Shown: positions 45,001 through 54,000 of the stretch, piece by piece
How positions within the stretch are numbered: position 1 is the stretch's first letter
Layout: each line of letters starts with the position of its first letter
Assembly: GCA_019358915.1 (NCBI GenBank)
Contig: JAHHIM010000028.1
Span: forward strand, 1-58,601
DNA length: 58,601 bases
Direction of reading: 5' to 3'
Source of the DNA: Trichormus sp. ATA11-4-KO1
GTDB taxonomy: Bacteria > Cyanobacteriota > Cyanobacteriia > Cyanobacteriales > Nostocaceae
Program-made: the position numbers

Positions 45001-48000
45001 TGCGAAAGGAAATAAGCGTTCAGCACTGGGAATAGCTGGAGTAGCAGCACAAGCTGGAGCAAGAACTACTGTAGCAACTTTGTGGAAAGTAGATGCCGGC
45101 TCCACTGCTTTACTGATGGAAGAATTTTACAAGAACTTGAACAATGCTCCCAAAGCAGAAGCACTTAGGCTTGCACAGATGAGTTTATTCTCCAATCCTC
45201 AATACAAACATCCTTATTTTTGGGCTGGCTTTGTGCTTGTCGGTGGATGGTTATGAAACTCTGTTAGTGGAAGCATAAGTTGTCTATAAAACACTATTTA
45301 TGCTTCTAATTGAGTTTGGACAACTTATGCTTCCATTTATATAATCTGTCACAATTAGTTTGCTTATTTTTCATAACCTAGCTCACGACGTATTTTCTTA
45401 AACTCAGCACGAACATGTGGTCTAAGCAACACCGCAGGCTTAGTCAATAATGCTGAAACCTTTCCACTCGTTGGTTTTATTCCTTTTTGGTGAAGTGACA
45501 GTGCAACCTGCCGGATCTCTTCATAAAGCTCACTTTTCCTTTTTTTGCTTTCAGCTTTTCGATACTGGCTATGTCTTGCTGAGATTGTGTCGCACAAATC
45601 TGAGCAATGTTCCCGCCAGAAATAAGGATACCCAGTAATTTTCACTTGCCTGGCAACCTCCATCAACGAAGGTGGCGGTAAATCATCGTTTTCTATTACT
45701 GCTTGCAGGAGGGTGCGTGTATTGGCTATTTTTTGATTAAGTCTATATTCCCTATACCGCTGTGAGATAGAACGGCAAATATCTGGAACCCATGCTTTCA
45801 AAACCGTGCGGTTAGTATTGAGTCTCTTTATAACCATTTCAAAGCTCGGTGGCGGAAATTCCTCTAAAGCATCTTGTAGTATTAAAATTACCTGAGGACG
45901 ATTCAGTCGATTGCGCTTCTTAGGGCACTGTATTGGCGGGCTAACAAACTGCTTTAATTCACTAAACCCTATCTCATTCGTTGGAGTTATCAAGAAATTT
46001 GTCAAAGAAGTATTTAGGTGAAAACATATTTTTAAGAGTTGGTTTAGCTGAGGTTTCGCCTTGTCAATAACCCAATTATGAAAGGACGTTTCCGGTTGTT
46101 CAATAATACGAGAGAATGCATTAATTTTGCCACCTGTTACATAATTAATGTAAAGTTTTAACACTTCTTTAATTCTGGCTTGAGGTACTGGAGAGCGAAG
46201 ATAATTTCCGGCTACAAGTAATTGTCCAATATTTCCTACTACCCATAACTGCCAGTTGAGTTCATGCTCTGGTAAAGACTCCAAACTAGAAGAATGCCCT
46301 AACCATCGACTACAGTGTGGACAGTATCCTGGTAAAGAATTGGACTTCAGCAAAGATGGAACCCGTTCACAATAAGGACACTTCTGAAACAAACGAGTCT
46401 GGTGGATTGGGCAGATTGTCACAAGATTAAATGACCAGATGAGTGGATCATAAGCTCCATGATGAGTCAAGTTTTGCATTTCATAACACGTTGGACACCA
46501 TGCTTTAAAGGAGCGAAGTAACCCTTGTGATGCAAGAACTTCCGCCCAAGACAGTACAGTCAAACTGCGTAAATCGTTCCGCAGAGTTAATCTCTCAAGT
46601 ACTTCAATAACGCTTACAACCGTCTTTCCAGCACCATTCAACATACTTGTCTGAGCAGAGTTTCCTCCCCAAATTGCCCTTATCCCTGACTGAGCATCGC
46701 TGTATACAAAGTCAGGTCTAATCAAAGGGGCAATAAGCTTGCCAATTAAAACACCAGGGCGTAATCCATGCTCTTGCGCCAGACGAATAACATAACTCGT
46801 TAAACTCTCCAAGGTTGGTGTTCCAGCCCCAGCAGGCTCTAATGAGTAAAGTCGGCTACGTGGGGGAATGGGAAGTTGCTGAAGATTCCAGGAATCGTAT
46901 GTTGTCAACGAATCAGCCAGCAGATTCATAAATTCCTCCCACTGGATCTCGTATTACTTTGCGCTTACCAACATTGCGCTTTTTACAACTGAGTTTTTCT
47001 GGCACTGACTGAGATTGGCTGTCAACCTCAAACGGGGTAGGAGAAGCCTGTACTAGTCCAGCACTCAACCCCAAAGCTAAACTTAATTTCTCGCTTGCAT
47101 CGGACGTTTCAACTAATTGTCGCTCACCCTCCTGAATCTCAGCGAACATCTTCTGACACTGGGCTACTGATAATGCATGGTTTTCTAAATGTTGGAGAGT
47201 TAAAGTCGATGCGTTTTCTTTGAGAGCATCAATCAAAGCGCGAGTCAGCCAGTTCTTCAAAACCCCAATACATCCCAAAGAACGCTGATAACAATATTGC
47301 CAATGACACAGAAGATCTGGCTCCTGTGGCAAGGGCAGATGTCGCTGAAAAGTCAGCAAAATGCCCATAAAGGCCTTGAGGTCTTCACTTACATCAGCCC
47401 GGTAACGAGAAAAGTGAATATCGACACTCCGACGACTCAGTTGAGCTGAGAGATTCCGAAATATCAGTAATTCATAAGTTCCAATCAAGATATGTACCAC
47501 ACCCGTCAGATTCACAATCGATTTCAGGCAATCCAAGTTGTCTTGAAGGCGACGACCTGAAGCCATTTTTTGCATATGTTGAGCTTCATCCACAAAGAAT
47601 GCCTGGGGTTGCCGATATTTCAAGGCTTTTTCCAAAGCTCTACGCAGTTCTGGAGCCGCAACTTTGGGCTGAATCACTAACTGCCCCTGTTCATTGCGAT
47701 AAACGCCCTGAGAACCATAATCTATCTTGTCTGCAATCAACGGTTCTTCCAAGGCTATTAGCCCACGCGTAAAATAATCTTTCCAGTTAAAACTGCTAGA
47801 TTCGGTTCCAACGGCTTCAATCCCCACCACTGGAATTCGGTCTTTATCTGCTTCTAACAAAGGTAATACCTGTTGAATTAGCTTTTGTTCAGTGCGTAAA
47901 CGCATGGTCGTTTTACCGATGCCAGTCGGACCGTACACAAAAATGAACGAAGCACCCGCTGGATTTTCAATATTTTGCAGCAGCGTTTTTGTCGCCTGTA

Positions 48001-51000: not shown

Positions 51001-54000
51001 ACTTATTTAGGACAACTTATGCTTCCATTTATGGACAAGTTATCGTCCCACTGACAAACTCTATTATTTTTAGCCCGTCTTGCACATGAGCTAACTCATC
51101 TGAGTTACCAGTCCTTAGAGCCAATTGTTCTGCCTTCTTGTATTCACGAAGCGCTTCATTCGGTAACCACGCTTCTAAATATCTATCTGCCAGTACTCTG
51201 TATAGAGTAGGGTTTTGACTCCCTCTTGAAACTAACACCTTCAATGTCTCAATCGTTTCATTCAAAAGATTTTTAGACATATATACAGCGTCTAGATCCC
51301 AAATAGCAGCTTCCTCTAAAGGTAACCCTAATTCATTAATCTGCTTCACCTGTTGTGCAATAGCGTTTTGCTCTTCTTCACTCAGTACACTGACTACTAG
51401 CGTTTCAGAGGAACTAATAGGCTCGTCGCCCTTGTTGGCAATTACAGTAAATTTGTATGTATTATTAAATGACAATTCCTTTTGTTCTTCCGGGTATGCA
51501 AGTGTTGTAATATTTTTATCTACTGTTTTCTCCCAATAAAATTCGTATCCATCGACAATCACTGTGTAGCTAGTAGCTAATTGAACAGCAGTCCAAGATA
51601 TTTGAGGTCTGGTACTCAACATTGAACTGCCGTAAGGGCTAATTAGCGTTGGCGCTTCTTTCTCCTCACCCGGACTCTTGGGATTGTAGCAAGGGTGAGG
51701 ATTTAATCCTGTGCATAGTACCGCTCTCTCTTGCGGTACTGTACAAGTATCTGATGAATCGAACACAGTACTCTTATTCAAATACAAAAAATTACCACTC
51801 AGGAAACATAAAACCTTGACTGTAGCTCCATTGGCTGGATTGATTCTATCTCCTTCGCACAGTCGGCTTCCACGTGGCAAATAGAGATCCCCTGCACTAA
51901 AAATTCGACCTATAAAGTTGCTACACCTATCTCTCACTATTGCTACTGATTGAGTTGGGCTTCCTGAACTGCTAACACTTGATAAAAGCAGTATTGATGG
52001 TAATGTCGATACAAGCACTACAACTTGAAGCTGGGAAACTTTTTCCTTTATATGGTTTAGTAAAGACTGCATAAGAGGGTTTTATGTACTTACTTGCCTG
52101 TTATTAGCATACTTGAACTTGATGGCAAAACAAAGAGCTAAAGTCTATACTTGCCCTAATATCCACTCTATTTTGATATTTTTGAGTTATTGGTGAGGCG
52201 ATCCAGCAATCCCTGCCTCCACTTGAAAACATCTTGCTGAGTAGTTCTAGCAAGCATACAAATTTCCCACGAAAGCCTAGCATCCTCATTTTTACCTAAA
52301 GCTTCTTGCACCTGAGCTAGCAAACAAACGGCATCTATTCTTTGGCTGTCTAAATCACTTGCTTTTTGTAAATATTTCTCTGCGTCGTTATATTGATTTT
52401 GTATGAACTTTGCCCAACCCAAATTTTTATATAAAGCAGCTTGTAACTGTTGATCTTCAGTTAAGCGCAATCCTTTAAGCGCTAATGCAGTAGCCTGAGC
52501 ATAGTCTTCTTTAAGATTGCTCAGACGCGACAAATTATTAAGCGCAGGTATTGCTTTATTATTAATTTTCAGTGCTATTTTATATTGTTCTTCAGCTAAA
52601 TCGTTTCTTCCTTCATCATCATAGAAACTTCCTAATCTATAATATCCCTCCCAATCATTAGGACTTAATTTCAAAATCTTTTGATAATTATCAATAGCAC
52701 AACGAAAATCACCCAATTGCCAACAAACTACAGCTAAACTATGATAAACATTTATATCTTTATCGTTATACTTAAGGGCTAATTCATAATATTTTTTAGC
52801 TAGCCTAAAGTTGTTAAAATAACGAGCAGCTTGCTCTAAATAAAATTGGGAAACAGAAAGTTTAAGCTGGGAATTATATTCTATTGCTTGGTTAAAATAT
52901 TTTTGTGCATTCTCCGAATCATTCGCTGCTTCTAACTCTTGACCTTTAACTACTAAATGATTAGCAAACGCTGGCAATCCTATTTTATAAATCCCTAACC
53001 CTATCAAACTAGCAGACGCAATTACTACACTAAATATGAACTTCTTAGACCTGGTTATTTTATAAATTTTACTTTGCTGAGGAATTTTTTTAAGTCGTTG
53101 TAAAATAATTTCAGTATTTGCAGGACGATTTCCTGGCATGGGAGCCATTAGTTCATCTATAAAATCAGCTAATGGTTTATCAATCTGAGGGGCTTTATCT
53201 CTCCATATTAGGCTTGTTGTATCTCGATTTGTCGGCAATTCCATTAGGGACACGCCAGTAACTAGACGAACAAAAGTTCGACCTAAAGCATAAAAATCAG
53301 ATTGAGGAACTGCCTTACCATAAATTTGTTCTAAGGGGCTATAATAATGAGAAATTACACTGGTAATTTCATATTTTCCTACTCTTGTATCTGTTCCTCC
53401 ACTGGCACTAACTTTAGCTAGATATGTATCAGTTATTCGTCGTACAGCCCCAAAATCTATCAACGCTAACCGCCCATCTGGTTGAAGAATTATATTCCCA
53501 GGTTTAATATCTCTATGAAAAAATTCAGTATGATGGACTATATCAAGTATTTCAACTAACTGTCGTAACCAATCTAGTGCTACAGATTGTGAAATTGGTT
53601 CATGAAATTTTATCCATTCTTCTAAATTTTGTCCTTCAAATTTATCCATTACTAAGCATCGAAGCTTGAAAGGACTTTGGTTAGGAGTAAAAACAAAAAA
53701 ATCATCTTCTCCATTAGTCTTAGGAATATTCGGATGATTTATTAACTGCAAAGCTAACACTTCTCGTTCAATTCTTTGAACGAATTTAGCAGAACTCCAT
53801 TTCATGACTTTCATGACTCGCCGTTTATGTTCAGGATTATGCTGTGTCCCTATATCCTCTACTTCAAAAATTTCATTGTAAGTAAATGGATTTTCGCTCA
53901 GTTCTCTTAACGGCTTGAGTAGACGAATTCGATTATTGATAAATAATGAAGTTCCACAAGAAAGGCATATCTCGGCATCATCAGGATTTTGCCGTTGTTC

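Follow-up and report, generated by a model that had tools for sequence, protein, structure and literature searches.

The window, a 58,601-nucleotide stretch of the Trichormus sp. ATA11-4-KO1 genome (assembly GCA_019358915.1, contig JAHHIM010000028.1), carries a cargo-less Tn7-like element of 5,795 bp behind a gene encoding a TPR-CHAT protein (Table 1). ORF listing, Pfam and PADLOC bear out the first-pass annotation in that a fused tnsAB, tnsC and tniQ are the only genes of the element. No further free-frame ORF of at least 80 aa lies within it, and its non-coding part consists of the ends only (102 bp and 236 bp). Neither ORFs nor PADLOC matches for Cascade genes, a CRISPR array or a second short TniQ were found between 45262 and 51056. 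The termini read TGT...ACA, with TGTTAGTGG starting at 45262 and CCCACTGACA finishing at 51056. The 17-nt TnsB-type repeats previously noted at both ends were located as exact copies at 45268-45284 (inverted), 45319-45335 and 51011-51027, and as degenerate copies at 45293-45312, 50906-50922 and 50936-50952.

Table 1 Features of the element and its insertion site (window coordinates)
Feature	Position	Strand	Evidence or remarks
Target gene, TPR-CHAT protein (830 aa)	42764..45256	+	Pfam CHAT 1.9e-54, residues 555-827, plus TPR matches
H-P-Y-F-W-A-G-F codons, putative core of the TnsD-type recognition site	45209..45232	+	53 to 30 bp from terminus
Left target duplication AACTC	45257..45261		5 bp, sequence read
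tniQ-side (target-proximal) end	45262..45363		Terminal TnsB-type site 45262-45284; two opposite-orientation sites 45293-45312, 45319-45335
tniQ, TnsD-like target selector (521 aa)	45364..46929	-	Pfam TniQ 4e-17; PADLOC TniQ_IB 1.1e-52; PDB 8v32_J/9bw1
tnsC, AAA+ regulator (399 aa)	46913..48112	-	Pfam AAA_22 and TniB; PDB 8fcu_Q TnsC E 5.5e-143
Fused tnsAB transposase (903 aa)	48109..50820	-	Pfam Tn7_TnsA-like_N (PF08722), rve, Mu-transpos_C; PDB 9bw1_M
tnsAB-side end	50821..51056		Four same-orientation TnsB-type sites: 50906-50922, 50936-50952, 51011-51027, terminal 51034-51056
Convergent partner ORF of CHAT gene (347 aa)	51029..52072	-	Outside element proper; marks the site
Right target duplication AACTC	51057..51061		5 bp, sequence read

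The element's proteins are each closely homologous to a component (TnsAB, TnsC or TnsD) of the PmcCAST transpososome (type I-B2 CAST), for which structures have been solved (PDB 8v32/9bw1/8fcu). TniQ matched the TnsD of 8v32_J/9bw1 with an E of 4.3e-100, its C-terminal module of ~50 aa being matched twice, and TnsAB aligned with 9bw1_M over residues 5-863 (1123.6 bits). A PD...ExK stretch at TnsAB residues 104-121 and D-D-E candidates visible in an alignment with a Tolypothrix TnsAB are, from what is known of the family, presumably the catalytic residues. The predicted TnsA endonuclease joined to a DDE-type TnsB, the presence of TnsC and TniQ, and the TGT...ACA ends with their repeats and 5-bp duplication argue for a Tn7-like transposon, as do an insertion site and orientation fixed relative to a putative selector-bound sequence in about ten events (see below).

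Sequence at both ends confirms the insertion 5 bp after the CHAT stop codon (45256) with duplication of AACTC. The final nine codons and stop of the convergent partner ORF now lie inside the element, so that its tail has been replaced (352 aa pre-insertion). A same-genus genome (G140) provides the empty site: an orthologous CHAT gene (77% identity) is followed by its stop, a single 5-mer AATTC and the same right flank, with no element.

A second copy in this genome had been proposed from two contig ends. C14:1-127 and C23:76191-76316 are indeed 100% identical to the two element ends, carry TTTAT on both sides and lie behind a CHAT gene (C14:145-...) in the same motif-to-terminus register as the window copy; the interior is collapsed in the assembly, and this copy is known from its ends alone. 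It is likely full-length, since the genome assembly contains no deletion-junction contig for it. The C14 CHAT protein is only 25% identical to that of the window over the C-terminal region, and tblastn of this genome detects the partner gene on the window's contig (C28) only and no homologue at C14/C23. With different flanks, a different duplication, a diverged CHAT gene and no partner gene, the second copy is best read as a product of transposition, not of duplication.

A scan of 389 Nostocaceae genomes for the exact end sequence yielded 11 termini outside this genome where ten had been counted before. The pattern reported earlier was reproduced: a CHAT-type ORF end precedes 10 of the 11, nine at 53 bp and one at 54 bp from the motif, and the eleventh (G172), away from a recognisable CHAT gene, carries the remnant known from G164 behind another upstream flank. 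Sites in G189 (one mismatch), G139 (54 bp) and G212 (51 bp, decayed) were added beyond the exact scan. Altogether some ten insertions, each a separate event at a different CHAT gene, are represented in this genome, other Nostocaceae and one metagenome run.

The distance from the tniQ-side terminus to the first base of the H/N-P-x-Y-W-x-x-F codons was measurable at eight sites. It is 53 bp at both copies here (C28 and C14 of this genome, G000), in an orthologue group spanning G159, G161, G164, G174, G189, G191 and contig C171 of G203, and at G178:C218, G202 and G361; it is 54 bp at G178:C32 (with an extra T) and G139, and 51 bp at the decayed G212 site. Distances from stop codon to terminus vary (5, 5, 11, 11, 5, 5, 12, 6 and 3 bp), and apart from the 54- and 51-bp exceptions the register is thus independent of stop position, as first proposed. 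The tniQ-side end points toward the CHAT gene at all sites with distinguishable ends; at L001/L043, where the CHAT side lies beyond the assembly, the tnsAB-side end adjoins a partner-gene homologue. Target duplications differ among sites (AACTC, TTTAT, AAGCA, GCAAT, GCGAC) and are perfect 5-mers at both copies here, at the G202 and G139 miniatures and in G191. The CHAT proteins concerned are 25-64% identical to that of the window, and the element ends 87-92% identical.

The first-pass annotation had treated the relatives' sites as insertions of the element itself, which does not hold: none of these CHAT-adjacent sites contains an intact element, only decayed remnants or miniature elements of 63-304 bp. 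The G202 and G361 remnants have the tniQ-side TnsB-type site layout of the window element. In a contig of run X3, an element of ~98% identity abuts, by its tnsAB-side end, AAGTG and an old remnant terminus, AAGTG being the same 5 bp that precede that remnant in G159, G161 and G203; an element has re-inserted here at the exact 5 bp flanking an older remnant. The homing proposed at the outset is strengthened by this re-insertion, by the G140 empty site and by the strict orientation. The two end-identical copies in this genome and ~98%-identical elements in four other runs indirectly suggest transposition activity, and the element may still be active.

Within the first 39 nt of eight target sites, 13 columns are invariant, 12 of which fall on codon position 1 or 2. 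This matches the account of TnsD on glmS in passages of PMC2918618, by which conserved non-wobble bases of the 3' coding end are read. Counted from the duplication centre in attTn7 numbering, the H-P-Y-F-W-A-G-F codons occupy +50 to +27, inside the +23 to +58 interval that the same passages give for the Tn7 TnsD site; for the present clade, part of PMC11837452 places the recognition motif 40-50 bp from the tnsD-side end. We infer from this agreement in sequence and spacing that TniQ probably binds CHAT-motif DNA. An intact tniQ beside a CHAT end occurs in this genome only (one assembled copy and one inferred), and TniQ genotype is tied to target only in this genome, at L001/L043 (by flank) and in run X3 (by 43 bp of CHAT-like flank); the relatives' remnants, devoid of tniQ, connect to this TniQ through end-sequence similarity only. 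Six TniQ relatives of 68-73% identity (P0002-P0007) are found only on Logan contigs. Equally good sites are empty at C17 and C19 of this genome, with several more in G140 and G203. Sister elements whose termini differ at 2 of 20 bases lie behind tRNA-Ala(GGC) with a 32-bp gap at all three loci examined. A conserved flank motif beside three G061 copies is a possible further multi-copy target.

Instead of the CHAT-motif DNA itself, the recognised feature might be something that accompanies it, such as the 3' terminus of the partner ORF or a structure lying between this ORF and the CHAT gene. Partner homologues (34-60% identity) run convergent to CHAT genes just past the insertion at 12 loci (11 distinct, L001 and L043 being one sequence) and at two further loci, and in the window the partner ORF overlapped the CHAT 3' end before insertion. 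Such an origin of the specificity is nevertheless improbable, given that the C14/C23 copy has no partner gene, that the C-terminal tails of the partners are unconserved (alignments stop at residues 336-347), and that the CHAT-motif register remains constant although the stop distance changes.

Were insertion essentially untargeted or only regionally biased, the CHAT association would come about because insertions that do no harm persist. Passages of PMC9881144 and PMC11406308 class the cargo-less relative Tn5469, discovered through its inactivation of a gene, as apparently untargeted; moreover, an orphan 71-bp tnsAB-side end lies at C60:389-459 away from recognisable CHAT genes, and a GC-rich repeat without a recognisable CHAT gene flanks the tnsAB-side end in an X2 contig. 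However, single-base register and one orientation at about ten sites, with the same 5 bp hit again, are beyond what selection can produce, and the unbiased terminus scan put 10 of 11 exact outside matches at CHAT ends, which leaves this account very improbable. It is scarcely credible that the sites descend from one old event, spread by duplication or transfer of a CHAT gene already bearing a remnant. Eight genomes do have the same remnant behind a single orthologous CHAT gene, clearly the record of one event, but at the remaining sites the element ends are far more similar than the CHAT proteins, the duplications differ, an orthologous site is empty, and the two copies in this genome are identical at their ends.

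With PmcCAST the window element shares the TnsA/TnsB fusion, a most likely TnsD-directed homing and a tnsD-side end toward the target. It differs in that Cascade, CRISPR array, second TniQ and cargo are all absent, in targeting a protein-coding motif rather than a tRNA gene, and in a TniQ of 521 aa against 462 aa, with the C-terminal module present twice. Membership in CAST I-B2 or I-D was rejected on the absence of Cascade, CRISPR array and second TniQ from 45262-51056. A minimal Tn7-like family described in part of PMC11837452 likewise comes from cyanobacteria and lacks cargo; its members encode a TnsAB fusion, TnsC and one TnsD, are found in several copies per genome and have internally deleted derivatives, but they target CRISPR repeats instead of CHAT gene 3' ends. 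The window TniQ shares 35% identity, over residues 6-396 only, with a plasmid TniQ of Allocoleopsis franciscana PCC 7113, whereas TnsD proteins of that family are ~50-90% identical to the A. franciscana TnsD, and it keeps the C-terminal modules that AfTnsD lacks according to the same paper. In view of this low identity, and of flanks formed by a CHAT gene and a convergent protein gene here and likewise at all related sites, assignment to the CRISPR-array-targeting family was also rejected.

Tn5469 of Fremyella/Tolypothrix is, in passages of PMC9881144 and PMC11406308, similarly cargo-less with TnsAB, TnsC and one TniQ, and the window element holds only these genes between its ends, as Tn5469-type elements do. 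Comparison was made through a three-gene element on Tolypothrix sp. PCC 7712 plasmid NZ_CP063790.1 (5,947 bp, TGT...ACA ends), presumed from organism and architecture to be Tn5469, with 59% (TnsAB) and 33% (TniQ) identity to the window proteins. Unlike Tn5469, described there as apparently untargeted, the window element has an exact attachment site. Parts of PMC2918618 show Tn7 TnsABC+D at attTn7 (glmS) to be alike in the putative non-wobble readout of a 3' coding end, the fixed downstream distance, one orientation, a 5-bp duplication and a gene left intact. In Tn7, however, TnsA and TnsB are separate, the tnsA-side rather than the tniQ-side end points toward the target, and that target is a single-copy essential gene rather than a group of paralogues offering several sites in each genome; the window element, in turn, has neither a TnsE-type second pathway nor cargo. 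Parts of PMC9881144, PMC11406308 and PMC11837452 attest that neither the architecture (TnsAB, TnsC and a single TniQ without cargo) nor the lifestyle, including the notion of a target present in many copies, is new; the novelty is the target, a motif-coding sequence common to a paralogous gene family.

With a probability of roughly 80%, we read the locus as a minimal Tn7-like transposon, autonomous and moving by cut and paste, that belongs to the cyanobacterial TnsAB-fusion clade and homes behind CHAT genes via TniQ reading of motif DNA, most likely by classic TnsD-directed homing. The single TnsD-like TniQ would bind dsDNA encoding the C-terminal CHAT motif H/N-P-x-Y-W-x-x-F(-x-L-x-G) and would recruit the AAA+ protein TnsC, which would position the TnsAB transposase for entry ~30 bp past the motif, with the tniQ-side end facing the CHAT gene and the 5-bp duplication falling a few bases past the stop. 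As insertion falls beyond the stop, the target gene stays intact, and as the motif is common to paralogous CHAT genes, several attachment sites exist per genome. With these, the element could build up copies in the manner of an insertion sequence (two in this genome), hit occupied sites again and decay in place to remnants and miniature derivatives.

We lean towards a wider view in which a TnsD-type selector evolved to read the codon-constrained motif of a whole paralogous family, turning the single-att Tn7 lifestyle into an IS-like one with many safe harbours per genome, where one site may be hit more than once. On this view it represents one branch of a wider, largely uncharted Nostocaceae radiation of minimal single-TnsD Tn7-like elements, in which every branch would aim at a different multi-copy target (CRISPR repeats, the CHAT motif, further flank motifs). 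Selectors of the Tn7 family attract study as natural and engineerable means of integrating DNA at specific sites, and known protein-guided attachment sites comprise conserved single-copy genes (glmS, comM, parE), tRNA genes and, from 2025 on, CRISPR repeats. By reading ~13 invariant, mostly non-wobble bases of a motif common to diverged paralogues, such a selector would show how much TnsD specificity can loosen without loss of single-base positional precision, and, if true, recognition could be dissected on the CHAT sites, where nature provides both better and worse target variants, some occupied and some empty. Such homing would explain the persistence of a cargo-less Tn7-like transposon as a purely selfish multi-copy element, and it suggests that "untargeted" Tn5469-type elements may merit a re-check for cryptic attachment sites.

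Between its two ends the element holds no cargo, and tniQ, tnsC and tnsAB are the only genes there. It begins with TGTTAGTGG, its first base 5 bp past the end of the TPR-CHAT gene, and finishes with CCCACTGACA at position 51056, where AACTC follows again. Sequence and open reading frame positions bear out the anatomy proposed in the first-pass annotation, namely the 5-bp spacing after the CHAT stop codon, the AACTC duplication and the three genes. The layout of repeats is unlike between the tniQ-side and the tnsAB-side ends.

Positions of the Tn7-like element, its repeats and the neighbouring genes on contig JAHHIM010000028.1
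Feature	Position	Strand	Remarks
TPS-domain gene	39961-42522		upstream of TPR-CHAT gene
TPR-CHAT gene	42764-45256	plus	Pfam CHAT 1.9e-54
Target duplication AACTC, left copy	45257-45261		5 bases between CHAT stop and element
tniQ-side end, terminal repeat	45262-45284
tniQ-side end, two further repeats	45293-45312, 45319-45335		opposite to terminal repeat
tniQ	45364-46929	minus	521 aa; PADLOC TniQ_IB 1.1e-52
tnsC	46913-48112	minus	399 aa
tnsAB fusion	48109-50820	minus	903 aa; Pfam Tn7_TnsA-like_N, rve, Mu-transpos_C
tnsAB-side end, four TnsB-type repeats	50906-50922, 50936-50952, 51011-51027, 51034-51056 (terminal)		single orientation
Convergent partner ORF	51029-52072	minus	no Pfam match
TPR Ser/Thr kinase gene	52168-54030		downstream

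A same-genus relative (G140) harbors an orthologous CHAT gene, 77% identical to that of the window, in which a single 5-mer (AATTC) separates the stop codon from the sequence that in the window lies to the right of the right-hand AACTC. This is an exact empty site for the window insertion. The CHAT ORF was left unbroken, and the partner ORF, which overlapped the CHAT 3' end before the insertion, had its last 13 codons swapped, changing from 352 to 347 aa. Partner homologues with 34-60% identity lie convergent to TPR-CHAT genes at loci L032-L041, L043, L045, L064 and L065 (12 loci, counted as 11 distinct ones with L001 and L043 as one sequence, plus 2 from a second set). This conserved convergent neighbourhood suggests that partner ORF and TPR-CHAT gene form a two-gene CHAT module.

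A second copy had been claimed on contigs C14 and C23, flanked by TTTAT. Its ends are confirmed, as C14:1-127 and C23:76191-76316 match the element's two ends at 100% identity and both adjoin TTTAT; the assembly collapses its interior. Since the assembly holds no deletion-junction contig for this copy, it is likely full-length and identical. It is inserted behind another CHAT gene, the ORF running from C14:145, which encodes a protein with only 25% identity to the window's CHAT protein in the C-terminal region. Twelve Pfam CHAT matches were found in this genome, six of them with a canonical C-terminus, and four of these six read H-P-Y-[FY]-W-x-x-F: those on C28 (the window) and C14 are occupied, those on C17 and C19 empty. 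An orphan tnsAB-side end of 71 bp, 96% identical to the element, lies at C60:389-459 (L063), with DNA unrelated to the element on its inner side; no Pfam CHAT gene was found on that contig.

In relatives, insertions were sought by scanning 389 Nostocaceae genomes with a 20-nt sequence of the tniQ-side terminus and inspecting the flanks. Eleven exact termini were found outside the Trichormus genome, ten of which lie behind the end of a CHAT-type ORF. Counted from where the codons for the C-terminal CHAT motif H/N-P-x-Y-W-x-x-F begin, nine of the ten are 53 bp away and the other is 54 bp away. The 11th, in G172, belongs to the remnant also present in G164, including a nested foreign insert, and has another upstream flank, 159 bp from the contig start; as the DNA upstream differs, the locus has either been rearranged or been joined in assembly. 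The nested insert (L034, G164:C110; L035, G172:C45) is another small element just inside the old remnant, with GC-rich inverted ends and a NotI-like GCGGCCGC core. Termini with one mismatch (G189) and two mismatches (G139) lie at 53 and 54 bp, respectively. Scanning with the tnsAB-side terminus confirmed the G139 insertion as a miniature of ~304 bp with the duplication GCGAC, and added G212. The G212 site holds a decayed remnant that follows a CHAT gene with 64% identity to that of the window; its terminus lies 51 bp from the motif with a T-run adjoining. None of the relatives' CHAT-side insertions is intact, and all are remnants, miniatures or cut ends. G202 has a two-ended miniature of 208 bp whose GCAAT duplication is perfect, and G191 one of 63 bp flanked on either side by AAGCA; at G178:C218 a solo end of 24 bp is left, and in G361 the end is cut off where the contig stops. 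Related decayed forms of the G191 event occur in eight genomes with an orthologous CHAT gene in common, hereafter the orthologue group. On the G361 contig (L042/L066, G361:C477, ~6890-6957), a second terminus-like sequence lies reversed ~110 bp inside the tniQ-side end, near the contig end, and may represent a nested or abutting related element. Pattern matches in G124/G148 and G376/G379 fall within conserved coding regions and seem to be fortuitous; ends in G056 and G382 and matches in genus g8 were set aside as other element families or unexplained.

TniQ searches of genome contigs returned only L001 (Nostoc sp. XA013, 98% identity) and those of metagenome contigs only the window's own contig, so neither yielded new intact copies with flanks. 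L001 and L043 (G203:C12) gave equal BLAST figures and were counted once; this closest TniQ outside the Trichormus genome is present in one other genome only, at a locus cut inside tniQ, and the next-best TniQ in the 389 genomes has 43% identity. The tnsAB-side end of L001/L043 adjoins a 60%-identical homologue of the partner ORF, so the locus is a site of the same type as that of the window, although its CHAT side lies outside the assembled sequence. Its tnsAB tblastn match (L001 6111-8818) comes as two pieces that overlap, one covering residues 1-689 and the other 686-903, suggesting a frameshift in this copy. Six further TniQ relatives on Logan contigs (P0002-P0007) show 68-73% identity.

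Parts of the element were also detected in seventeen run rows from 13 studies, and elements ~98% identical to it were found on contigs from four runs (X2-X5). On one X3 contig, the tnsAB-side end is followed by AAGTG and then by the terminus of the old remnant known from the orthologue group; in G159, G161 and G203, too, AAGTG stands directly before this remnant. A fresh copy has therefore entered the exact position of an older one. Another X3 contig reaches 43 bp past the tniQ-side terminus, into CHAT-like sequence. An X2 contig shows, beyond the tnsAB-side end, a GC-rich repeat that does not resemble a partner gene.

About ten separate insertion events were counted: C28, C14, L001/L043, the orthologue group, the X3 re-insertion, G178:C218, G202, G361, G139 and G212. 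Their duplications differ, and the CHAT proteins across sites (25-64% identical to the window's) are far less alike than the element ends (87-92% identical), which marks these events as independent of one another. The distance from stop codon to terminus is 3, 5, 6 or 11 bp at eight measured sites and 12 bp in G178:C32 of the orthologue group, whereas the distance from motif to terminus is 53 bp, apart from two old sites with 54 and 51 bp. This rules out the stop codon as the landmark and bears out the 53-bp register, whatever the distance to the stop codon, that the first-pass annotation had claimed. Nor is the partner gene required, because the C14 copy lacks it. When eight sites were compared, 13 of the first 39 columns were invariant, namely columns 2, 4, 5, 10, 13-16, 22, 23, 29, 34 and 35, with 12 of these being first or second codon positions. 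The empty CHAT ends of C17, C19, G140 and G203 fit the invariant columns about equally well and hence look like unused sites.

The machinery closely matches solved Tn7-like proteins: TniQ matches TnsD (PDB 8v32/9bw1, E 4.3e-100), TnsC matches 8fcu_Q (E 5.5e-143) and TnsAB matches 9bw1_M over almost its full length (1123.6 bits). Alignment places a PD...ExK stretch in the TnsA part and D, D and E candidates in the TnsB part, which, as in the family generally, would be the catalytic residues. TniQ residues ~350-396 and ~407-456 repeat in tandem the C-terminal module of ~50 aa of the solved 462-aa TnsD. This duplication is not special to the element, since twenty sister TniQs (33-36% identity) are 505-541 aa long and have alignments that reach residues 517-521, close to the C-terminus, and we do not propose it as a specificity switch. 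In attTn7 numbering (0 being the duplication centre) the CHAT motif occupies +27..+50, within the Tn7 TnsD site at +23..+58, where PMC2918618 likewise describes variation at wobble positions only. In 3/3 loci a gap of 32 bp separates tRNA-Ala(GGC) from sister elements, which show 2 differences in the 20 bases of their termini, and PMC11837452 places the recognition motif of the clade 40-50 bp from the tnsD-side end. By eye, the tRNA-Ala 3' region and the CHAT motif DNA show no common core in the same register. Structural matches, attTn7 geometry, sister-element gap and clade motif distance make TnsD-type homing of the ordinary kind, with its DNA specificity new, the most likely mechanism, for which we infer both binding and activity.

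Cargo-less elements with TnsAB, TnsC and a single TniQ are published, and Tn5469 is called apparently untargeted in PMC9881144 and PMC11406308. On a plasmid of Tolypothrix sp. PCC 7712 (L095, NZ_CP063790.1), a three-gene element of 5,947 bp (1733-7679), taken to be Tn5469-like, shares with that of the window 59% identity in TnsAB and 33% in TniQ. A 317-bp miniature with the same termini (7685-8001) lies end-to-end with it, 5 bp away. A minimal Tn7-like family described in 2025 targets CRISPR repeats, according to PMC11837452; the window element does not belong there, as the array-targeting TniQ of A. franciscana is 35% identical over residues 6-396 only. Multi-copy single-TniQ sisters with ~35% TniQ identity (three copies in G061, L074-L076; L068, G160:C3) end 113 bp after tniQ and show, by eye, a similar flank motif ~30-55 bp from the end, a hint of another multi-copy target. 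A full-text search, the main texts of PMC9881144, PMC10293859, PMC11406308, PMC11837452 and PMC8649781, and the supplements of PMC9881144 and PMC11837452 gave no link of Tn7-like elements or TnsD with a CHAT-gene target; the supplements of PMC10293859 and PMC8649781, outside this scope, could list such sites.

Collectively, the feature is real and well supported. Its value lies chiefly with transposon specialists and it is not categorically new, the clade and its lifestyle being already known; what is new is an attachment-site specificity for DNA that encodes a motif of a paralogous gene family.
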